This document shows positions 3,460 to 23,356 of a DNA stretch of 64,000 bases, piece after piece. Each line of letters opens with the position of its first letter. Positions within the stretch are counted from its first letter, which is position 1. The notes under the pieces were generated by a model, which was not told where the DNA came from, searched no databases, and saw nothing but the letters and a program-made list of their open reading frames with translations. Location of the stretch: positions 651,685 to 715,684 of the forward strand of contig JAHQJS010000007.1 in the NCBI GenBank assembly GCA_019057385.1, written 5' to 3'. A program made the translations under genes and the position numbers. The DNA comes from Candidatus Borrarchaeum weybense (lineage in GTDB: Archaea; Asgardarchaeota; Sifarchaeia; Borrarchaeales; Borrarchaeaceae).

Positions 3460-4990
3460 CTCCCGCCTCTGGAAGCCCCTACCCTTTAGGGTGGGGAGGA
3501 AAGAGGCGTTTAGACTAACTTAAGTTAAAAAATAATCCTTTCCCATATTTAACCAACTCTACTTTTTTGATAGCTACGCTTTTGTCTTTTCCATTAACAT
3601 TTTTTAAAATAACTCGCTTTCCAAGACAATGAGTCCCTTTTACTCTATACGTTCTACCCTCAAACTTTACAAGATCATACGGTTGTAACGGGTATCTCTG
3701 TCTTCTAATAGACGGTTTGAAACCTTTTCTATTCAATTGGAGTGAACGATTATTGCGCCGCACCTGAATAACCTCATACGGTCTACACCGTGGTTGTGTT
3801 GTGCCTCCCGCAATGACAAACGCATCATTAACATGCGACTTTTCCAGTCCTAAATTGTTACGCTGGTATTTGGTGACGTATCCGTAAGTATGCTCTGCAC
3901 CTAACTGTTCTACTAGCCTCCAACGAATGTTATTAATACATGCTGGTGCTTTAAGTGGCGTCTTTGCCTGCTTTTGTATGTGTGGATAGCCAAACTCCTC
4001 TGCGGTCTTATCTCCCTTCTTTAGATTACAGTTCCTACATGATATCGTCAAATTCGACACTCGGTCTGTGCCACCTCTACTTTTCGGGACGATATGCTCG
4101 ACTTCTAAGGGCACGTTTGTGTTACCACAATAGGCGCACTTTCGTCCCCACTTATCCAATAGATATTCTTTGACTTCGTAGCCCTGTAGCTCGCCCTGCT
4201 GATATGCTACGCCTGTAATTTCTGGATGTCGCATTTTCTGTGTGTCGAAATTCGCAGTCTCTATCCTTTTGTAAGTTATAGGAAGTAGCGTTGCAAGTGT
4301 TTCAACTAATCGAATATGTGAGTCATGCCTATGCTGAGTACTAGGGGCTAACCATCCTTCAGGACGTTTACGATTATCAAATCGAGGTGGGCGATACCCT
4401 AATCTGCCTCTACGCGTTCTACGATACCTCCGCTTTTCTTCAAGCTTGTTAGACACATCCTTGCGCAAGTTTAACGTCCCACTGATGACTTCTAACGTAT
4501 CGGTCTTGGCACTAAATCCAATATTCGTAAATCCGATATCCACTCCTAATTTAATCAGTTGTGTCGCCTCTCCAGTGGCATAGTTCAACTGAATGGTGAA
4601 AGGACACCGTTTTACAACTGTAGCCTTTCCTTCTTTTAACAACCTCTTTCCGTTATGTTGTGTGGTAGGCATGAGCGGTTGCCCCCTCATGTTTACCACA
4701 TAGATAGGTACTCTCAAGTCCTATCTCCTCCTTTAACTGATGTTAAAGTCGGTTGGTTCTCTTCGCCAAGGTTATCAGTCAGTACTCTACGATGATCACT
4801 GAGCGTTTCCTCTCTGTTTAAACCACCGTTTACAGAGCAAGGGACTAGAGAAGCATCCCTTGGTGTGTTCTTTAACTCTCCTGATAACGTAGATACCGTC
4901 ATACACTATATGACCTCTCTTAGGCTAATCAACTAATTGCTCTCAGGTCTCACGACCCAAGCCCCTACCCTTTAGGGTGGGGTAATTGAC
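3460..4990 (-). mobile_element. IS200/IS605-family IscB element (no tnpA)
   Basis: Same subterminal hairpin gcccctaccctttagggtgggg at ~3475 and ~4961; minus-strand end GTCAATTACCCC at 4990; boundary near 3460 is approximate. Confidence 0.85.
3515..4717 (-). CDS. iscB: RNA-guided endonuclease IscB
   Basis: PLMP N-terminus, RuvC-I LGVDIG, RRYRRTRR bridge helix, RuvC-II IETANFD, HNH EVEHIVPKSRGG...NCN, RuvC-III SHVNDA. Confidence 0.95.
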   Translation of the reverse strand: MRVPIYVVNMRGQPLMPTTQHNGKRLLKEGKATVVKRCPFTIQLNYATGEATQLIKLGVDIGFTNIGFSAKTDTLEVISGTLNLRKDVSNKLEEKRRYRRTRRGRLGYRPPRFDNRKRPEGWLAPSTQHRHDSHIRLVETLATLLPITYKRIETANFDTQKMRHPEITGVAYQQGELQGYEVKEYLLDKWGRKCAYCGNTNVPLEVEHIVPKSRGGTDRVSNLTISCRNCNLKKGDKTAEEFGYPHIQKQAKTPLKAPACINNIRWRLVEQLGAEHTYGYVTKYQRNNLGLEKSHVNDAFVIAGGTTQPRCRPYEVIQVRRNNRSLQLNRKGFKPSIRRQRYPLQPYDLVKFEGRTYRVKGTHCLGKRVILKNVNGKDKSVAIKKVELVKYGKGLFFNLS

Positions 4991-13617: not shown

Positions 13618-14595
13618 ATGGTCTGGCCGCCTCCCTATGGTGCACCTCCACAAAAACGCACTTCATCTACAGAAATAATTCATATATTAGTAGGAACCGT
13701 TCTTGTGTCACTGGTGATAGGATCGTTCTTTTTCGATCCGCTAAATTTGTTTGCGGACATTGCAATGAACCAGGATCAAATATTCTTATTTGTGTTAGTT
13801 TCGTTCCTAGCAGCACCTGCTTTCATCCTGCACGAGTTAGCACATAAATTCGTGGCTCAAAAATATGGTTTTTGGGGAGAATTCAGACTTATTCCTTTTG
13901 GCGTCGTCCTTACTATAATCTCAATAGTTTCTCCGTTTAAGTTAGTCGGACCTGGAGCTGTGATGATCTCTGGGGCAAATATCACACGAGAAAAAAATGG
14001 AAGGATTTCTTTGGCAGGACCAATAACAAATTTCATATTGATTGGGGTCTGCCTTCTTTTCGTTCCATTTTTACCATTCGAGATTGTTGGTCAACCATTT
14101 CTTGTAATACTTGCCCAGCTTAATGCTATTATTGCTGTATTTAATTTATTACCAGTCTCACTCTTGGATGGAAAGAAGATTTACAAATGGAATAAGACTG
14201 CATGGTTAGTCTCTATTGCTCTATCTGCATTCTTTTGGGTAGTTCTTCTTTTTTTAAGCGTATCGCCGTTCATCTGGGTTTTAATGGGAGTTGGGGTGTT
14301 AAGTGTTGCTGCGTTAATCTATTGGAACTTCTTCAGGGAAAAAAAAGGAAAAGAGATTGAAATAATTGATGCTTCAGAAATGCCATTTATTCCACGATTC
14401 ATTAGAAGTTCATCAGAGAGTGCATCAGAGGAAAAACCAGAGACTAAGATAAAATCTATGCTTGTTAGTGAGTGTGAACAATGTGGAAAAGCAGTATTTC
14501 TTCCTTTTAGGTGTTGGCGATGCGATGGGTTCTTCTGTTATGACCATAGATTGCCAGAAAACCATAACTGCCCTGCATTGAAGGGAGCAGGTTAG
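13618..14595 (+). CDS. Site-2 protease (M50) with C-terminal AN1-type zinc finger
   Basis: HELAH, AGPITN, FNLLP..LDG; C-terminal CEQC...CWRC...FC..HRLPENHNC. Confidence 0.88.
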   Translation: MVWPPPYGAPPQKRTSSTEIIHILVGTVLVSLVIGSFFFDPLNLFADIAMNQDQIFLFVLVSFLAAPAFILHELAHKFVAQKYGFWGEFRLIPFGVVLTIISIVSPFKLVGPGAVMISGANITREKNGRISLAGPITNFILIGVCLLFVPFLPFEIVGQPFLVILAQLNAIIAVFNLLPVSLLDGKKIYKWNKTAWLVSIALSAFFWVVLLFLSVSPFIWVLMGVGVLSVAALIYWNFFREKKGKEIEIIDASEMPFIPRFIRSSSESASEEKPETKIKSMLVSECEQCGKAVFLPFRCWRCDGFFCYDHRLPENHNCPALKGAG

Positions 14596-14740
14596 TTTAA
14601 ATTACTTTTTAGTTCTAAATAGAAAAAGGAAAGCTAAGAGCTCAAAAAAACTCTTAAAGTTGAAGAATTAAGTTGCTAATCTGATTTTAAGAAAAGCAAA
14701 AAAGAAAAAAGAGTAATTAAGAAAGATTTCATGCACACAT

Positions 14741-14944
14741 TTAACCTTTGATTGCTAGGTTAATGTCAGACATCATAACTTTCTTTCGTCCGGCGTGTTT
14801 GGCAAATCCGACCGCTTTCCTCGTGAGTATCTCACATTGTTCTTCAAGATAGTCAACGAGTTTCATTACAGCGCCCTTAGCTACCAATTTTGCGCCAGAT
14901 TCTTTCATAAGATCTCTAACTGGGGCAATTGCTAATCGAGCCAT
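14741..14944 (-). CDS. Archaeal histone (copy 1)
   Basis: HMf-like fold: AIAPVR.LMK..GA...AKHAGRKKV...D. Confidence 0.95.
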   Translation of the reverse strand: MARLAIAPVRDLMKESGAKLVAKGAVMKLVDYLEEQCEILTRKAVGFAKHAGRKKVMMSDINLAIKG

Positions 14945-15175
14945 AAAATCAACTCCACTTCAAAGAATGAACTGGTTTCATTCTTTCTGAAAAGTATTTC
15001 AGTCTTAAACCAATATATAAAGCTTCTGGTTGCCTCAACCAAGTTCCCCATTTAAAACTCATCATGAACTCGATACTCAACGAAAATCTTAATGATCATT
15101 ATAGTGCGCGCGCTATTGGAGGTAATCAGAGACTATAGCTATAATATAAGTATAATTCGAAGGCGACTTATTTGG
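14945..15175 (-). promoter_or_regulatory. Conserved histone upstream module, copy 1 (SD, 5' hairpin, TATA/BRE, palindrome, distal block)
   Basis: GGAGTTGA SD; hairpin 14962-14986; TTTATATA 15014-15021; TGGTTGCCTCAACCA 15027-15041; shared with copies 2 and 3. Confidence 0.75.
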
Positions 15176-15370
15176 GTGATGTGCTACACGCGCACAAACA
15201 TATAGTTCAATCAGAATCCACTCTTTAAGTCAATCACAATAGAATCAACTTTTCATAATATGTGTAAAAAATTGCTAGATTAGCTATAGGAAGATACGTG
15301 ATTAGCATAGCGGATTCTAAAATATAAAAAAAAAGAAAAAGGGGTATAAAGAAAGACTAGACACACACAT

Positions 15371-15574
15371 TTAACTTTTGATTGCTAGAGAGATGTCGGA
15401 CATCATAACTTTCTTTCGTCCGGCGTGTTTGGCAAATCCGACCGCTTTCCTTGTGAGCGTTTCACATTGCTCTTCAAGGTAGTCAACGAGTTTCAAAACT
15501 GCGTCTTTAGCTACCAATTTTGCGCCTGAGTCTTTCATAAGATCTCGAACTGGGGCAATTGCTAATCGAGCCAT
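15371..15574 (-). CDS. Archaeal histone (copy 2)
   Basis: Near-identical paralogue of 14741..14944. Confidence 0.95.
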   Translation of the reverse strand: MARLAIAPVRDLMKDSGAKLVAKDAVLKLVDYLEEQCETLTRKAVGFAKHAGRKKVMMSDISLAIKS

Positions 15575-15810
15575 AAAATCAACTCCACTTCGAAGAATGA
15601 ATTGATTTCATTCTTTCTGAAAGATCTTTGTACTATAATGACTATATAAAGCTTCTGGTTGCCTCAACCAAGTTCCCCAAATCAAGATACTCATGAACTT
15701 GGTGCTTATCGAAAATGTGGGCAGTCCATACCGCGAGCGCGTACTCGGAGTCAATCAGAGACAATAGATATTACTGAAATATTACCTCATAGCTACATAT
15801 TTGGATGACA
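15575..15810 (-). promoter_or_regulatory. Conserved histone upstream module, copy 2
   Basis: Hairpin 15593-15615, TATA ~15643-15650, palindrome 15656-15670, distal GAGCGCG...GGAGTCAATCAGAGAC block. Confidence 0.75.
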
Positions 15811-16064
15811 AAATATACCAACTTATGGCACGATTTAACCATGATTCCCATTTCTATTATTTTTCATCATAGAGAGTATCACTCAACAAATAACTCAAAT
15901 CCGTCTAACAATGAAAGCTCTACCTCAGAATAAGACTAAAATTTGCACAAAACTTTGGTTTAAATATCTAGCGAAAGCTACGCGAAGATAAATAACTAAC
16001 TTAATGAATTGCAGACACTAAAAAAAAGAAAAAAGGGTAGTTAAGAAAGATTCGACGCACACAT

Positions 16065-16268
16065 TTAACCTTTGATTGCTAGGTTAATGTCGGTCATCAT
16101 AACTTTCTTTCGTCCGGCGTGTTTGGCAAATCCGATCGCTTTCCTCGTGAGTTCTTCAACTTCTGCCTCAAGAAATTCAACGAGTTTGGATACAGCATCC
16201 TTAGCTACCAATTTTGCGCCAGATTCTTTCATAAGATCTCTAACTGGGGCAATTGCTAATCGAGCCAT
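16065..16268 (-). CDS. Archaeal histone (copy 3)
   Basis: Paralogue differing mainly in helix 2 (EFLEAEVEEL). Confidence 0.95.
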   Translation of the reverse strand: MARLAIAPVRDLMKESGAKLVAKDAVSKLVEFLEAEVEELTRKAIGFAKHAGRKKVMMTDINLAIKG

Positions 16269-16503
16269 AAAATCAACTCCACTTGCAAGAATGAATTGAT
16301 TTCATTCTTTCTGAAAGGTATTCAGTCCTAAGCCAATATATAAAGCTTCTGGTTGCCTCAATCCAACTCCTCATAATAAGACCATCATGAACTAAGTACT
16401 CATCGAAAGTTTTGGTATTCCATACTACGAGCGCGCAATCGGAGTCAATCAGAAACTATAAACATCACAAAAAACTTGATTCATTGATACTCATTTGGAT
16501 AAC
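16269..16503 (-). promoter_or_regulatory. Conserved histone upstream module, copy 3
   Basis: Hairpin 16287-16309, TATA ~16337-16344, imperfect palindrome 16350-16365, distal block. Confidence 0.75.
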
Positions 16504-16799
16504 CATATGCACATATTACCTGTAGAATTTAACATAAATTTTGTTTTTTTGGATAAAAAAATGCTTAGATCACTATTACAAAAAACAATCTGTTTCCTTT
16601 ACCGATTTCACTGAAAAAGGTTAAATCATTATTTAGAGCCATAAAAGCTTATCAGGATATCAATTGCAGTTTATATTAATTGAAAAAATTCTTCTAAGTG
16701 TTTTTAGTCTTTTTGTCATTACAAAGCGCGATAAAAAACTGTTTCTTTTGTGATTTTCTATTTTTTTAAAGTGTATGCTCTACTAAATTGTGTGTTGAT

Positions 16800-17044
16800 G
16801 TGAGCTACCTCGTACTAAAGCATCGAGGCTTCCTGCTTCTACGACAGACTCGATCCCCTTGTCGGGTTACGGAGGTCATATCTCCACAGGCTTAACATCC
16901 CTACGCCCCGTAGGTACGGTTAACCATCGTGATGCAATCGAAGTATGCACCTTGTCTACAAGTGTGCGTATTATCCCTCCAATTGCCGTTGATATCTCGT
17001 TATACCAACTATATAACTCTTAGGGAGACCCCTCGATCTAAGTG
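16800..17044 (-). mobile_element. ORF-less IS605-type element carrying a TnpB-type omega-RNA scaffold
   Basis: Minus strand: TTTAT|CACT...ACCGTACCTACGGGGCGTAGGG...AAGCCTGTGGAG...GAAGCAGGAAGCCTCG...GAGGTAGCTCAC, a typical tnpB right-end sequence. Confidence 0.7.
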
Positions 17045-17074
17045 ATAAAATTGAACACACATTATTGCAACTCA

Positions 17075-17419
17075 TCACCACGTTGAAACAGTGGTGCTTT
17101 CTTGCTCAGTTACTCGTAAAAAAATAGTTTCTTGCATTCTGAATAAAACGACTAACGTTCCAAAAACGGGGAAGATAGCAAGGATCAGAAACATTATGCG
17201 TATACCAAACATCTCAGCAATAATACCAGCTACTGTATTCACTCCATAGAATATCCCCACCATTATACTAGCCTGAAATAATGTAGCTCCAAGTGATTTT
17301 GCATAAAGAGGAATTATAACAACTGGAATTATTATCGAAAATGCGTAGAACCAGTTTACTGTGTTTATTGATAATAAGGAAGGATTAGAGTTATCTTTTG
17401 TTGAGTTCAATGTGCACAC
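17075..17419 (-). pseudogene. Internally deleted MFS transporter remnant
   Basis: MFS N-terminal motif PLYAKSLGAT...G joined directly to MFS C-terminal AGIIAEMFG...QET. Confidence 0.6.
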
Positions 17420-17608
17420 ATCTGTTCGTAAGAGAGACCATATTTCAATTTAGTCCATTGCGCAAGTTGAAAATTGAACTCATCACAAGCCTTATAAATC
17501 AACCGCATTGAAGACCACCTGTGCAAATTTTTGCTCCTATTAGCGTTATCTGATTTAAAAAACTCCAATAAATAAAAACATTCAATCTAATATGAGGCTT
17601 GATTTTTC

Positions 17609-18760
17609 TTGAAAAGCAGTACTCAAAGCTTGACAACTCTTAGTTTCGCTCACTATTTCAATGATACCTATTCAATGATTCTCCCTGGATTGATACCAAT
17701 TCTTATTCCTCTATTTGGACTTAGTTACTTTCAAGCAGGATTGGCTGCCATGCTTCTAGTAGCGATCCCTGCAGTTCTACAGCCATTGTTAGGACATTTT
17801 GGTGATGCAGGGAAAGCCAAACAAGTTTTGATTGGAGGATTAATACTCGTCAGTATCAGTACGGCATTTTTTGGCGCGGCTCCAAACTATATCATTTTTC
17901 TTCTTCTTTCTGGAATTGCAGGTGTCGGTCTTGCTGCATATCATCCACAAGCAACTTTATTTCTTTCAACTGACTTTGGAGGAGGAAAGGGGAAGGCATT
18001 GGGTATTCATGGGGCTGGAGGAAGTTTAGGTCATTTCTCTGGTCCAACGTTAATTACAATCTTGGCTTCCACAGTTATCGGATGGCAATTAGGCTTAGTT
18101 CTACTAGTCATTCCAACGATTTTAGTAGCAGTTGCGTGCTGGGTAATTCTTCACACTTCTGATTTATCTTCGAATTCAAGTGTTAAACATGCACCTTATA
18201 GTATCAAGAAAGCATTAACAATCCCGGTTATCATCCTTAGTATTGTAATGGCACTAAGAACCTCGGTTTACAGGGGTATTACTACTTTCTTACCTGCATT
18301 TTTTGTATCAGAAGGTATTTCATTGCTTTATGCAGGAGCGTTCACAGGAGTACTGTTAAGCGCTGGAATACTAGCCCAACCGTTATTTGGACTTATTTCA
18401 GATCGCATTGGCAGGAAAATAGTTGTTGTAACCACAATGCTAGCACTTTCACCGCTTGTCTTTGTTTTTGCATTTTTAGTATCTATTTCGGAATTACTTT
18501 TAATTATCGTTTTATTTCTAATTGGATTTTGTATTTTTGCAACGTTTCCTGTAGGATTAGCTTTTTCCGCGGAACTTGGAGAAAATAACGTCGCTATTAC
18601 TGTTGGTATCGTTTCGGGGATCTCTATGGGTTTTGCAGCCATGATCCCGCCAATAATTGGTTATATTATCGACATCTTTGGTTTCTTTGAGGCATTTGGC
18701 GTTTTGGCCGGCTTTAGCCTTTTGGGTGGGATGATATCTTTTTTTCTTCCAAAAAAATAG
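17609..18760 (+). CDS. MFS transporter (Fsr-like)
   Basis: ~12 TM; AHYFNDTY, QPLLG, GLISDRIGRK. Confidence 0.9.
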   Translation: MKSSTQSLTTLSFAHYFNDTYSMILPGLIPILIPLFGLSYFQAGLAAMLLVAIPAVLQPLLGHFGDAGKAKQVLIGGLILVSISTAFFGAAPNYIIFLLLSGIAGVGLAAYHPQATLFLSTDFGGGKGKALGIHGAGGSLGHFSGPTLITILASTVIGWQLGLVLLVIPTILVAVACWVILHTSDLSSNSSVKHAPYSIKKALTIPVIILSIVMALRTSVYRGITTFLPAFFVSEGISLLYAGAFTGVLLSAGILAQPLFGLISDRIGRKIVVVTTMLALSPLVFVFAFLVSISELLLIIVLFLIGFCIFATFPVGLAFSAELGENNVAITVGIVSGISMGFAAMIPPIIGYIIDIFGFFEAFGVLAGFSLLGGMISFFLPKK

Positions 18761-18899
18761 GGTGTATGCATTTGATTCATAACAAGAGGGGTCAAAAAAG
18801 ACTAAAACTTAATTATATGAGGACAAAATACAATTTAGGACTGAAAAATTGATCGGTAACAAAAAAAATGATATGATGTTGAGAGAAAGAGTAAGAAGA

Positions 18900-20729
18900 T
18901 TAAAGGAGTCCTATTTTTTCTTGAAAGATCTTATATCTTTTAATTATTTTTGCCCTTGAATATCTCTGAGTTAAGGTGCCTAAATGTCCCATTCGTTGTG
19001 CCACTAAATTCTGTTTGACTCCTAATTCTTGAAAAAACTCAGACATTGAATGTCTTAAACAATGTGCAGTGAAATAAACACCACTATTCTCTCTTAACTT
19101 TGAATATATCTGATGAATTATCCACGGATGAAGTTTCACTTTTTTTACTTTTCCAAGAGCGAAAAAAAAACCATCATGTTCAACTCTATGGATTTTTCTA
19201 AGTAACAATTGTTGTCTTACTAAAGCTTTCATCTCATTTGTTAATACGACAAATCTAATTTTGTCACGTTTACCTTTAACTTCTATGTAATGTTCTCTAT
19301 CGAATCGAGGGATAGGTTCATTTCCATTTTGTTTATTTTCCATTTCGTCTGGTTTGCCAAGCACCATGTCCATTGTAATTTTCTTGTATTCTGAAACCCT
19401 TAAGCCAAGGTTTAGTCCTAAATCAAAAATATTTTTCTCTATTGGATTATTTATCACTTTTCGAATTTGTTTAATTTCTTCTCTTGTCAAGGCTCTTGGT
19501 TTTGTCTCTGGTAATTGGGGAACAACTTGTGGGAGTTTCAAAGTTTCTTTGATTTCTAATACAATTGCAGTATCTATTATTGGTGAATGTATTTTATTCT
19601 TCTTACACCATTCCATTCCTTTTTTCCTTATATGCCATTTTTCTACCCATGTTAGAAAAGCTGATATTGATATTGCTTTATCTTTAATAGATACGGGAGA
19701 ATTAGGTTTTGTTTGTCTGGTACAGTTGGAGAAACTGCCATATTTCTTGAGATATTTAAAATATTCGATAATGATCTCTGAGTCAAGGTTCTTCCAAGTT
19801 TTTTCCTTTGATTTTAGGAAATTACAAAGATCTGCTATAGTTGATGTGTATTTAGCGATTGTTTTATCGCTTATTTTACCTTTTTTGTCATTTCTGTATG
19901 CGATGAGTAGATTATCGTACTCATGGAAAGTATGACTAAGCTGCATTCCGGCTTCCAGAAGTGCATTGTTCCACGAGCCAAAATGAATTGCATAAGTTAA
20001 AGGTGAAGGTAATAAAGGATCCTTTGAAAATTCACGATTAGCAGGAGTTTTTCTAGTTTCTTTTTTATAATTCTTCAATATTTTTAGGAGTTCTTCTTTC
20101 GTATATCGCTTTGTATTTGGATCAAAGCCTAATGATTCAATAAACTTGTTATAAGTTCCATAATAATTTACAAATGTATTTAAGCTTGGTAAATCTAATC
20201 CTAATCTTAACTTTGGAAATTCTCGTTTGGTAGGCACTCTTCCTGTCTCTTCTATGTATTTCTTAAACTCAAGTGCCTTTTTTTCTATCTGTTCTTTTTT
20301 ATATCGCTTTACTTTTGGATTATATCCCAAAAATTCAATAAACTTGTTATAACTTCCAAAATGCCTAACAAGAGTATTTACACTTGGCAGATCTAATTTC
20401 AATCTTAGGTTTGAAAACTCTTCACTGGTAGGAACTTTATTTGTTTCTTCTATGTATTTCTTAAGCGTGAATGCTTTATGATCCATCTCTTCCTTTGTAT
20501 ATCCCTGTTTTCCACGTCGCTTCGTAATTGATTCAAAGCCTAAAGATTCAATAAGCTTATTATAACTTCCATAATACTTAACAAATGTATTAAAACTTGG
20601 TAAATCCAATTCTGATCTTAACTTTAAAAATTCGTCTTTGGTGGGAATTTTATTTGTTTCGTCTATGTACTTCTTGAACCTAAGTGCTTTTTGTTTGATC
20701 TCTTCTTGTGTATATCCTTTTCGACCCAC
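18900..20729 (-). CDS. Tyrosine recombinase with four N-terminal homing-endonuclease-associated repeats
   Basis: GLRVSE, KGK, HCLRH, MGH, QRY catalytic set; four YT.EE...P...EF...LPS..T....FGS.N repeats. Confidence 0.85.
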   Translation of the reverse strand: MGRKGYTQEEIKQKALRFKKYIDETNKIPTKDEFLKLRSELDLPSFNTFVKYYGSYNKLIESLGFESITKRRGKQGYTKEEMDHKAFTLKKYIEETNKVPTSEEFSNLRLKLDLPSVNTLVRHFGSYNKFIEFLGYNPKVKRYKKEQIEKKALEFKKYIEETGRVPTKREFPKLRLGLDLPSLNTFVNYYGTYNKFIESLGFDPNTKRYTKEELLKILKNYKKETRKTPANREFSKDPLLPSPLTYAIHFGSWNNALLEAGMQLSHTFHEYDNLLIAYRNDKKGKISDKTIAKYTSTIADLCNFLKSKEKTWKNLDSEIIIEYFKYLKKYGSFSNCTRQTKPNSPVSIKDKAISISAFLTWVEKWHIRKKGMEWCKKNKIHSPIIDTAIVLEIKETLKLPQVVPQLPETKPRALTREEIKQIRKVINNPIEKNIFDLGLNLGLRVSEYKKITMDMVLGKPDEMENKQNGNEPIPRFDREHYIEVKGKRDKIRFVVLTNEMKALVRQQLLLRKIHRVEHDGFFFALGKVKKVKLHPWIIHQIYSKLRENSGVYFTAHCLRHSMSEFFQELGVKQNLVAQRMGHLGTLTQRYSRAKIIKRYKIFQEKIGLL

Positions 20730-21002
20730 GCAATCCCACCTTTACAAAATTATGTTCATCTATGATGTCTTCAGTATTTGAATGAAACCATTTGATAATG
20801 CAGTTTTTGTTGCACAATGATTTAGGTCGATTCACTTCGCTATACATGGATCAAAGTTTCTATAAAAACCCCTCAATTCAACTCCAAATAAGGTTAAGAT
20901 TTCTTTAGTTTGGCTGGAGCTGTGATTGCTATTCTTCTGCCTAAAATATAAGCACAAATAGTTGCCCACTTTTGGGTGTGAACAATCACGAATGAAAATT
21001 GT

Positions 21003-21350
21003 TTAAAGTTCTCTGTAGGACTTGTAACTGAAATATATGCAGGCTAGCCCATCCAAGATGAATGAAAACTGCTTTACAATGCTTATTGGATTCGTGAACG
21101 TATACCATGCTGGATTACCTGGAGTAACAATTAGTGCAGTTAAACCAATAATCAAGAGAAGTATTCCTAATATAAAAGCCGGCTTGATTTTCTTAATATA
21201 AAGTGGAATTAATATCCATGCTATAAGGGTCATTATCGAGAAGACAATCAGTGCAGAGGGTGACTGTAGGTTCATCATACTAGCGATCACGACGGATATA
21301 AGCGCCCAACCTGCCACTCCGATTAAGGTGATTACTGCACAAGTTAAATT
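21003..21350 (-). CDS. Small membrane protein, start uncertain (possible remnant)
   Basis: Four hydrophobic segments; the annotated 5' part lies in a low-complexity A-tract. Confidence 0.4.
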   Translation of the reverse strand, partial: NLTCAVITLIGVAGWALISVVIASMMNLQSPSALIVFSIMTLIAWILIPLYIKKIKPAFILGILLLIIGLTALIVTPGNPAWYTFTNPISIVKQFSFILDGLACIYFSYKSYREL

Positions 21351-21513
21351 AGAAATAGAAGCGTAATAAAAGTAAAAAAGCAAAAACGCGAAAAATAGTA
21401 GCAAAAAAGTGAAAAAGTAAAAATAAAATGAAATCAAGTTAGTTTCGCATCCAATTTCGTTTTATTCAATGAACTATTATATTGCAGATATATAAAAAAT
21501 ATCAGAAAGCATT

Positions 21514-22320
21514 TTAGTCAAGTATGATTCTTCTATGTCCCAAAGGGCATGTTCCATAATGACAGTCATACCAACCTTCGTCCCACTTTTCCTCGACGTT
21601 ATAATGGTTATAGCAATATATCTTATCACACTTTGGACAATATGCATCCATGCCCTCTTCAAGAGCTGGGGATTCATGCGCAAAATCGTGGACTTCAGCA
21701 AGTTTGTCTTCTTCTAATAAACTGAAAACCTTTTTAGCATCCTTCAAACTAAAAGATGCTGTTGTAGTGAGTCCAATATAATACAGGTATTTTTTGCCAT
21801 CTATACTGGAAACCCCAATTTTAAAGCCTGCCCCAACTTCTCCACAAATAGCGCACGGTAGATGATATTCTTCATCGCTGTACTTAATTACACGTTGAGT
21901 TGGTGCTTTGTGTTCCTCTTTACCCACTAAATTTTCTAATTCAGTAGAAATCTGTTCCCAACAAACTTCAAATGTAGCTCTTAGTTCTGACTCTAATTTT
22001 ATTCCATCTTTACCCGTGATCTTTAATTCACTCGAAGACTGTTCTAATCGACTTTTTGCCAATATCAAGTAAGACCAAGCCGACTTATCGTAATGAGTCC
22101 TATCATCGCTGATTCCTTTAAGCAGTTCCCATGCTGAGACGATACTAAAATAAACTTCTTTAACATCTGTAATCCACGCTTCATCAATAGATTCATCTGT
22201 AGTATTCAAAAATTCAATTATTTTGTCTTTTACATCTTCAAGTTTTTGTATTGAGTCTCTTATCTTCCAAACTCGTTCTCTAGCTTTGTCTTTAGCTTTA
22301 ACTTTTTTTTTACGTGGCAT
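21514..22320 (-). CDS. Hypothetical protein with C-terminal Cys/His cluster
   Basis: Start probably MPRKKK at 22320; CAIC, YCPKCDKIYCYNH, CPLGH. Confidence 0.7.
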   Translation of the reverse strand: MPRKKKVKAKDKARERVWKIRDSIQKLEDVKDKIIEFLNTTDESIDEAWITDVKEVYFSIVSAWELLKGISDDRTHYDKSAWSYLILAKSRLEQSSSELKITGKDGIKLESELRATFEVCWEQISTELENLVGKEEHKAPTQRVIKYSDEEYHLPCAICGEVGAGFKIGVSSIDGKKYLYYIGLTTTASFSLKDAKKVFSLLEEDKLAEVHDFAHESPALEEGMDAYCPKCDKIYCYNHYNVEEKWDEGWYDCHYGTCPLGHRRIILD

Positions 22321-22387
22321 TTTTTTTAAACTCTCAATTAAAAAATGGATTTGGGACTTAATATAACTTATCGATTGTATCATTGAA

Positions 22388-23356
22388 CTAGAAAAACTGT
22401 AGTCCACTATAAATCGCTATTGAGAATAACGCCGCCGCTGGAAAGGTGACACCCCAAGCAAAGGCAATTCCTTTAACGGTACGTGTATTTACTTTAATTT
22501 TTTTGGCGTATCCTACGCCTATGAGTGCCGCTACCAAAACTGCAGTTCCGGAGAGAGGCAATCCAAACCATGTGCCGAGAAACATAACAAGAGCCGTTGC
22601 AACTTGCGCGGCAAATGCTGATGAAGGAGTTAATTTTACCACTGAAGTTCCTAGTTCTAAAAGCACTCTTCTACCAAGGATCAGAAGTCCAATAGTTGCC
22701 CCAATACCTCCAATAATCAATAAAACAGTAAGTTCAACTGCGTGAATTAAAGGTGCAATCGCATTAGCTATATCATTTGCACCCCTGCTAAATTGTGTGA
22801 TCATTACAGCGACCAGAAGCATCTGTGCGAATAGTCTTTCTCTTTTTTCTACATCATTTAATCCTTTGACCTTTGAGAGAACACCTCTCTGCAAAGCGGT
22901 GTAGGTAAGGTATGCGATAACAAAACCCAGAATCGGAGAGATAGCCAAACCTACGAATACTAGCACAATAGCATTCCAATTAATATATGAAAAACCAATA
23001 ATTACGCCTAGTCCTATTATTGAACCTATCATAGCTTGTGTTGTAGAAATGGGAGATTTAAAGTAACTAGCTATCGTTAACCATGCTCCAACAGCGAAAA
23101 CTATAGATATAATCTCAATCATTGTTAAAGGCTTTGTAATAATTCCTTTTCCTAAGGTTTCTGCCACTCTGTCTCCTAGTACTAGAATCCCAGCGATGTT
23201 CAATACACATGCTAAAACTAAAGCGAATTTCAACTTAATATATCCCGAACCTACCGCTGGAGCAAATGTTTCATCATTACTACCAATGCCGAAGCTAATT
23301 GTAGATGCACCGCAAATACTTAAAATGAGTAATAGAAATATAGGTAGAGTAACCAT
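22388..23356 (-). CDS. pit: Inorganic phosphate transporter (PiT family)
   Basis: GSND and GANDIANA signatures, PISTT. Confidence 0.9.
   Translation of the reverse strand: MVTLPIFLLLILSICGASTISFGIGSNDETFAPAVGSGYIKLKFALVLACVLNIAGILVLGDRVAETLGKGIITKPLTMIEIISIVFAVGAWLTIASYFKSPISTTQAMIGSIIGLGVIIGFSYINWNAIVLVFVGLAISPILGFVIAYLTYTALQRGVLSKVKGLNDVEKRERLFAQMLLVAVMITQFSRGANDIANAIAPLIHAVELTVLLIIGGIGATIGLLILGRRVLLELGTSVVKLTPSSAFAAQVATALVMFLGTWFGLPLSGTAVLVAALIGVGYAKKIKVNTRTVKGIAFAWGVTFPAAALFSIAIYSGLQFF

Follow-up and report, generated by a model that had tools for sequence, protein, structure and literature searches.

A 2.2-kb insertion with a repeat-fused tyrosine recombinase as its only gene at the end of a transporter gene in Candidatus Borrarchaeum weybense

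Within a 64,000-nt stretch of the genome of the Asgard archaeon Candidatus Borrarchaeum weybense (contig JAHQJS010000007.1; the whole stretch is called the window here), positions 18718-20908 hold an insertion whose sole gene encodes an Xer-like tyrosine recombinase with four HNH_repeat (PF18780) units. The insertion lies at the 3' end of a gene for a major facilitator superfamily (MFS) transporter, brings a substitute for the gene end that it displaced, and is absent from the same place in three genomes of the genus. We consider it likely to be a tiny site-specific integrative element, and comparison of its relatives at other loci suggests that the family as a whole is mobile.

Coordinates are positions in the window unless preceded by a genome and contig (C plus number). 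G000 is the window's own genome (4.18 Mb in eight contigs, the window lying on a 905-kb contig), and G001, G002, G003, and G004 are the other four genomes of the same genus, used for comparison. P0001 is the window recombinase, and own_B, own_C, and own_D are its three paralogues in the window genome. Family members were searched for in these 5 genomes and in 36 others from the same phylum, catalytic residues were aligned across 10 family members, and repeats were counted in 20 fusion proteins with a purpose-built hidden Markov model (HMM). Cut-offs were 26 bits for PF18780, 27.1 bits for PF00589, and 220 bits for the XerA equivalog model NF040815.

The insertion, its borders, and the empty sites

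The filled site comprises the following features.

17609-18760, plus strand: MFS transporter gene, the target, 383 aa, now chimeric (MFS_1, E value of 3.7e-39, Pfam)
18712-18717, plus strand: left junction core CTTTAG (three-way alignment of filled and empty sites)
18718-20908, no strand: inserted element, 2191 bp including one core copy (absent from three same-genus genomes)
18718-18760, plus strand: element-borne substitute MFS 3' end, ...LLGGMISFFLPKK and stop (three-way alignment)
18761-18899, no strand: non-coding arm from the substitute gene end to the recombinase stop (sequence read)
18900-20729, minus strand: recombinase gene P0001, 609 aa (open frame, GTG start)
20730-20902, no strand: upstream non-coding arm, 173 bp, including a GGTGG motif and no small open reading frame (ORF)
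20903-20908, plus strand: right junction core CTTTAG, identical to the left core
20909-20951, plus strand: displaced native MFS 3' end, ...LAGAVIAILLPKI, 14 codons and stop (matches the G004 gene end)

The MFS gene is host-derived to 18717 and takes its final 14 codons from the element, the insertion point lying 14 codons ahead of the stop. Its orthologues in G004, G001, and G002 are 90-95% identical and stand at empty sites: the MFS gene is separated from a 297-aa gene (21514-22407) by 2754 bp in the window and by ~530 bp in G004, and window positions 17226-18729 and 20903-22484 map to abutting stretches of G004 with a 15-bp overlap, as they do in G001 and G002. These empty sites establish that the window carries a 2191-bp insertion, and the same filled arrangement in an independent assembly (GCA_019058535.1) means that it is no assembly artefact. 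The displaced native end differs from the working MFS end of G004 at a single position of 43 bp, the gene-end duplication has a sharp left edge at the core in the three-way alignment, and the MFS frame is intact in both filled and empty states.

The substitute end is identical to the native end at 7/14 residues (~56% at the DNA level) and, at 9/14, to the C-termini of more distant MFS orthologues (70-77% identity overall), a weak hint in the sequences that the element may have come from a more distant host while keeping the same target gene. A search for the donor of this end was abandoned, as 9/14 versus 7/14 is a marginal difference and the gene beside the orthologue at locus L057 is no recombinase.

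The recombinase gene is convergent with the MFS gene. A repeat search of the element found no terminal inverted repeats, and the inverted or direct repeats that it returned were short and unconvincing, save the coding repeats. In the non-coding arms, searched by k-mers, no convincing repeated arm-type binding motif emerged, only low-complexity or two-copy matches, which were no more than expected of AT-rich DNA. An insertion sequence in the usual sense was rejected, as copies within the genome are at most 49% identical and terminal inverted repeats are lacking. An earlier reading of this DNA from its sequence alone (the sequence-only reading) had guessed at a solo mobile element with no tRNA, adjoining virus genes, or obvious attachment sites, and had proposed a comparison of empty and filled loci. 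That comparison supports the guess, both here and in relatives of like build; no tRNA gene was found in the window, and the neighbours are ordinary genes (MFS, PHO4, and PhoU_div). The attachment sites are indeed not obvious by eye, but the sister genomes reveal the cores at the two junctions.

The recombinase and its repeat array

The P0001 gene has a Shine-Dalgarno-like GGTGG motif 7-8 nt before its GTG start and encodes, from the C-terminus inward, the following parts.

18903-19502, minus strand: catalytic domain, aa 410-609 (PF00589; invariant R444, K487, H556, R559, H582, and Y590)
19515-19922, minus strand: helical core-binding-type domain, aa 270-405 (sub-threshold Phage_int_SAM_1/4/5; AlphaFold2 helices)
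19935-20111, minus strand: repeat R4, the second repeat type, found in all family members (Pfam, repeat HMM)
20121-20720, minus strand: repeats R3, R2, and R1, the triplicated first type (Tandem Repeats Finder, alignment of relatives)

The sequence-only reading had described a tyrosine recombinase with a repeat array of the homing-endonuclease-associated pattern and had suggested HMM confirmation of both parts, which Pfam provides: PF18780 scores 116.9 bits (E value of 5e-34) over 4 stretches and PF00589 (Phage_integrase) 35.4 bits over residues 413-591, both above cut-off. The full R-K-HxxR-H-Y set that it had recognized is intact, the six residues being invariant in the 10 aligned family members and the K, HxxR, H, and Y motifs aligning with those of the genome's own XerA. 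Its SAM-like core-binding region holds in part: aa 270-405 are helical in an AlphaFold2 model, but the Pfam matches to Phage_int_SAM_1/4/5 (E values of 5e-4 to 2.4e-3) are each under the gathering score. Scans with Pfam and NCBIfam found repeat and recombinase domains only, with no nuclease domain (HNH, GIY-YIG, or LAGLIDADG).

By sequence, P0001 is a distant Xer-like tyrosine recombinase. The best-scoring NCBIfam model is XerA NF040815, at 56.4 bits far under its cut-off, and the closest solved structure is XerA of Pyrococcus abyssi (4a8e; E value of 2.8e-9). Identification as XerA itself was rejected, given the low score, the empty locus in three sister genomes, and a true XerA elsewhere in the genome (G000 C4:1215570-1216397; 253.5 bits on the same model), to which P0001 is 24% identical over 119 residues. 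The vertically conserved XerA of fixed architecture, which the sequence-only reading had named as a case that would undo it, thus fails.

The repeat HMM places the units of P0001 at aa 4-66, 76-136, 141-203, and 207-263, and Tandem Repeats Finder reports a 198-bp period at 20094-20720 (3.1 copies, 73% matches, score of 466). R1-R3 are 59-68% identical to each other in protein and 74-79% in DNA, in line with the sequence-only description of four ~55-70-aa repeats of which three are similar down to the DNA. R3 is the counterpart of the relatives' lone first-type repeat, and R1 and R2 are extra copies, the relatives beginning near aa 140. Comparison of the R1-R3 copies (dS of 0.54-0.73, dN/dS of 0.29-0.42) indicates that the duplication is old and that every copy has been kept by selection; positive selection was considered and dismissed, since these dN/dS values are purifying, not diversifying.

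An expandable array had been proposed along with a survey of repeat number, and the survey bears this out: 17 of the 20 fusion proteins have two units, 2 have three (P0028 and P0042), and P0001 alone has four. A tree built from the recombinase body places every expanded protein next to a two-unit sister (P0001-P0003, P0028-P0033, and P0042-own_C), so the array has grown at least three separate times. Mean pairwise identity across the family is 0.49-0.52 in the repeats and 0.64 in the catalytic domain.

AlphaFold2 models the R3-R4 pair with a pLDDT of 92.9 and four helices per unit, a small fold whose likeness to helix-turn-helix domains is weak. A Foldseek search of this pair against the PDB gave no match at an E value of ≤0.001; the best fold match with VIA was to residues 616-668 of SauUSI (Z score of 5.7, a middling value in the tool's range for common arrangements), followed by weak matches to DsrC, TetR, LOTUS, and an R2 Myb region (Z scores of 4-5). 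Elsewhere, PF18780 arrays reach up to 22 units and occur alone, after SF2-helicase/ResIII domains, or with HNH nucleases, settings that fit a nucleic-acid-binding module without proving one. Within the window genome, all HNH_repeat matches fall in its four recombinase genes.

Relatives, further copies, and other features

Among 5.8 billion proteins, close relatives of P0001 (46-60% identity) fall into around a dozen clusters, all with PF18780 plus PF00589, and a profile search of 1.8 billion representatives added a few more distant fusions, its other top matches being repeat arrays without a recombinase. The family occurs in 3 of the 5 genomes of the genus (the two lacking a match are both incomplete) and in 0 of the 36 others from the phylum, and has been seen only in Sifarchaeum/Borrarchaeum-like Asgard archaea; the nearest named carriers are the metagenome-assembled genomes of Candidatus Sifarchaeum marinoarchaea and Candidatus Borrarchaeum yapensis. 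Each carrier genome holds several diverged copies at different places, the window genome having four. No family member was found among IMG/VR viral contigs, a metagenome scan yielded nine loci, mostly ones already found, and the copies have no conserved neighbouring gene in common. Four more copies allowed their borders to be drawn, as follows.

G003 and Ca. Sifarchaeum marinoarchaea copy: 1.66 kb, versus the empty site G000 C8:56184-56188; 3' end of an arginase-family gene; substitute C-terminus
own_C copy: 1.6 kb, versus an empty site in G004; 87-aa gene; core about CAAGT
own_B and relative P0009: ~1.7 kb, where G002 has 68 bp; LysE gene; substitute C-terminus
P0005 copy: 1.68 kb, where G000 has 184 bp (C4); radical-SAM gene; substitute end overlapping the recombinase stop

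All bordered copies have recombinase and target in convergent orientation, with the substitute end immediately past the recombinase stop; that stop ranges from 160 bp before the target stop to a 30-bp overlap. The arginase-family target is still 320 aa, the flanks of own_C form a diverged direct repeat of ~115 bp made of the substitute and native ends of the 87-aa gene, and the own_B and P0009 copies adjoin the same LysE gene in five contigs. Borders of the own_D, G004:C120, and G003:C15 copies could not be drawn, because the sister genomes have different DNA there. The copies at loci L021 and L022 are 2.6-2.8-kb segments with extra small ORFs. Attachment sites (attP and attB) reconstructed for the window, own_C, and L008 elements share no motif, the cores being CTTTAG in the window and about CAAGT in own_C.

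In some relatives (at L059, L022, L055, and own_D) a small gene directly adjoins the start of the recombinase gene; the encoded proteins, of 128-191 aa, are mutually homologous and give weak ribbon-helix-helix (RHH)-type matches.

L059 1091-1507: small RHH-like gene
L022 9577-9981: small RHH-like gene
L055 2440-2826: small RHH-like gene
L016 2688-3263, minus strand: small RHH-like gene

Locus L053 retains just the last 15 residues of this gene, and the window element, with 173 bp upstream of the recombinase, has none of it. The product may be a directionality or regulatory factor. As only some members have this gene, the family's conserved content amounts to one or two genes; genes for replication, packaging, or transfer do not recur among the copies.

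Several further observations concern these loci. The own_C (G000 C7:572237-573637) and own_B (C7:592905-594218) genes are 19 kb apart on the same strand, ~76 kb from P0001. The G004:C27 copy corresponds to L022 9520-12322, with extra small ORFs, and the 319-aa gene there is intact at G000 C5:77401-78360. A variable spot with the same flanks (G000 C4:1272199-1274922 versus L021 8997-11561) holds a family recombinase and an RDD/zinc-ribbon gene in G004 and three unrelated ORFs (176, 327, and 135 aa) in G000. G000 C7:822391-822637 is 80% identical to the 247 bp upstream of the P0005 recombinase (L053 4697-4943), lacks an adjacent recombinase, and could represent a scar or a small gene shared by the two places.

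Just upstream of own_B lies a GC-rich, structured-looking repeat of 180-330 nt, ending ...GGTGGTAGTTCAC, which was considered as part of that element and set aside as a separate multi-copy structured element. The repeat family, with a unit of ~330 nt, has at least six copies in G000 and more in sister genomes, gave no Rfam match, and may be a stand-alone guide-RNA-type scaffold.

G000 C7:236297-236623: GC-rich repeat copy
G000 C7:366698-367025: GC-rich repeat copy
G000 C8:187417-187749: GC-rich repeat copy
G000 C4:1217840-1218152: GC-rich repeat copy
G000 C4:85491-85805: GC-rich repeat copy
G000 C7:592701-592895 (L011 1315-1494): truncated copy
L049 2615-2940: full copy

Elsewhere in the window, a complete-looking IscB locus (3515-4990, minus strand) consists of a 400-aa RRXRR plus HNH protein (3515-4717) and, directly before its gene, a HEARO/omega-type RNA (4752-4990; 129 bits versus a gathering score of 83). 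Positions 14595-17075 contain no ORF of ≥100 aa; gene calls from a sister assembly give short histone-fold genes (67 aa) there.

Interpretation and comparison with known systems

If the insertion is a site-specific integrative element, as we think probable, its circular form would carry an attachment site made of the CTTTAG core and the imitation of the last 14 MFS codons. The recombinase would pair this site with its counterpart in the chromosomal MFS gene and exchange strands inside the 6-bp core by the usual tyrosine-recombinase mechanism, after which the element's substitute end would restore a full-length MFS frame and the native end would be displaced downstream. The N-terminal units would act as accessory DNA-binding modules that help to pick or hold target or arm DNA, the array taking the role of the arm-binding domain of lambda-type integrases, and the gain of units (from two to four here) might alter or extend recognition. 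The element may be active at present.

Several points weigh against this account. The genome has no near-identical copies and so no sign of recent bursts, and the element has no replication or transfer gene that would account for movement between cells. The 5-6 identical bp at the switch point could be chance and no mark of a crossover, because the substitute and native gene ends are homologous. DNA binding by the repeats gains no support from the Foldseek search, which gave no match, from the middling VIA score, or from the arms, in which no repeated motif was found. For the own_B and P0005 copies the displaced native end was not found, and the G004:C27 copy is an exception that lies mid-gene, with the host gene broken and 487 bp missing. 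The window element has no RHH-like gene; a directionality factor may have been lost from it, and with that factor the ability to excise.

Some of these points would suit the remains of a once larger integrated element (provirus, plasmid, or island), now immobile and reduced to an integrase and its attachment sites: no gene for replication, packaging, or transfer is present, the copies are old and diverged, none of them forming an identical pair, and relatives carry extra DNA in the form of the RHH-like gene (L059, L022, L055, and own_D), the L021/L022 segments, and the broken gene at G004:C27. We nevertheless find such a remnant improbable. Five separate copies are each 1.6-2.2 kb, the three cleanest keeping both junctions, and repeated internal deletions that end at one minimal unit are unlikely; only the RHH-like gene and the recombinase are shared between loci, none appears in IMG/VR, and purifying selection still acts on the frame, on the catalytic residues, and on each of the four repeats. 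A homing-like spread, in which a filled allele serves as the template for repairing damage at an empty one, by way of flanking homology and with no strand exchange at the core, would leave the same anatomy of substitute C-terminus, enzyme gene, and displaced old end as mobile endonuclease ORFs do; the repeat module is usually joined to homing nucleases and helicases, and the core could be a chance identity within homologous gene ends. We think this, too, quite unlikely, since P0001 has PF18780 and PF00589 only, with a complete recombinase catalytic set in place of a nuclease domain, tyrosine recombinases work by conservative exchange, and the duplication's left edge is sharp at the core.

A housekeeping or regulatory role in the host, whether dimer resolution of the XerA type or a domesticated switch of the MFS C-terminus, would agree with the Xer-type identity of both the best NCBIfam model and the best solved relative, and with an MFS gene that is intact whether filled or empty. 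It is nonetheless highly improbable: the score of 56 bits against 220 and the true XerA at G000 C4:1215570-1216397 leave P0001 outside that family, the locus is empty in three sisters, 2 of the 5 genus genomes (both incomplete) have no match, and the paralogues lie at unrelated loci. A reversible switch seems implausible, because the circle, having no replicon, would be lost after excision.

The small element family is real and unusual, with a new domain fusion. The literature search found no description of this fusion or of these elements, and the only mention of PF18780 in the literature searched was in work on repeat modelling. Asgard archaea go unmentioned in a review of tyrosine recombinases from archaea (PMC8371274), and no element of this kind is described in two papers on the mobile elements of the Asgard group (PMC8813620, PMC11529989); aloposons and other published Asgard elements were discounted as unrelated in content. 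The family enlarges a very short list of described Asgard mobile elements. SSV-type ("suicidal") archaeal integrases likewise drive an archaeal integrative element with a tyrosine recombinase, and insertion splits their integrase gene, which contains the attachment site (PMC8371274); an SSV-type element was ruled out here, the P0001 gene being whole in the inserted state.

Archaeal XerA has the same catalytic fold and motifs as P0001 and the same two-domain body of core-binding and catalytic parts, whereas P0001 adds a 265-aa N-terminal array, is patchy between sisters, has a number of paralogues, and is part of an insertion. Other HNH_repeat proteins (homing endonucleases, SF2-helicase fusions, and repeat-only arrays) have the same unit in tandem arrays of variable length; the partner here is instead a tyrosine recombinase, without a nuclease or helicase domain, which suggests a targeting module common to different mobility enzymes. 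Free-standing homing endonuclease genes have the same anatomy as the window element, with nuclease and repair in place of a conservative recombinase.

Cryptons are DNA transposons of eukaryotes whose sole product is a tyrosine recombinase, in many cases with an additional DNA-binding domain fused to it. They resemble the family in lifestyle, being a few kilobases long with a single recombinase gene, no terminal inverted repeats, and short direct end identity, a likeness that does not imply homology; rebuilding of target-gene ends is not known from Cryptons. It is conceivable, though we judge it rather unlikely, that the HNH_repeat units form a modular, extendable DNA-reading array in which added or swapped units retarget the recombinase to a new gene end, and that the one- or two-gene Asgard elements are a self-sufficient, recombinase-only transposable class, a prokaryotic counterpart of Cryptons in lifestyle, whose target could be deduced from the array. 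Should the array indeed determine the target, this would be a natural system in which the target choice of a recombinase is readable, and perhaps alterable, through repeats.

A parallel in lifestyle is with integrases that target tRNA genes and with those of phage 21 and e14 in the Escherichia coli icd gene, which insert at the 3' end of a gene and bring a replacement end. Shared with them are a short identical core, an element-borne, diverged gene end through which the gene stays functional, and a native end displaced downstream. They move tens of kilobases and many genes, and integrases normally travel among the many genes of viruses, plasmids, or islands, whereas here the recombinase, sometimes with a small partner, appears to be the whole mobile unit, all the cargo of 1.6-2.2 kb; the targets are assorted protein-coding genes, an HNH_repeat array replaces the lambda-type arm-binding domain, and the element seems to repair the gene it enters by supplying a spare end.

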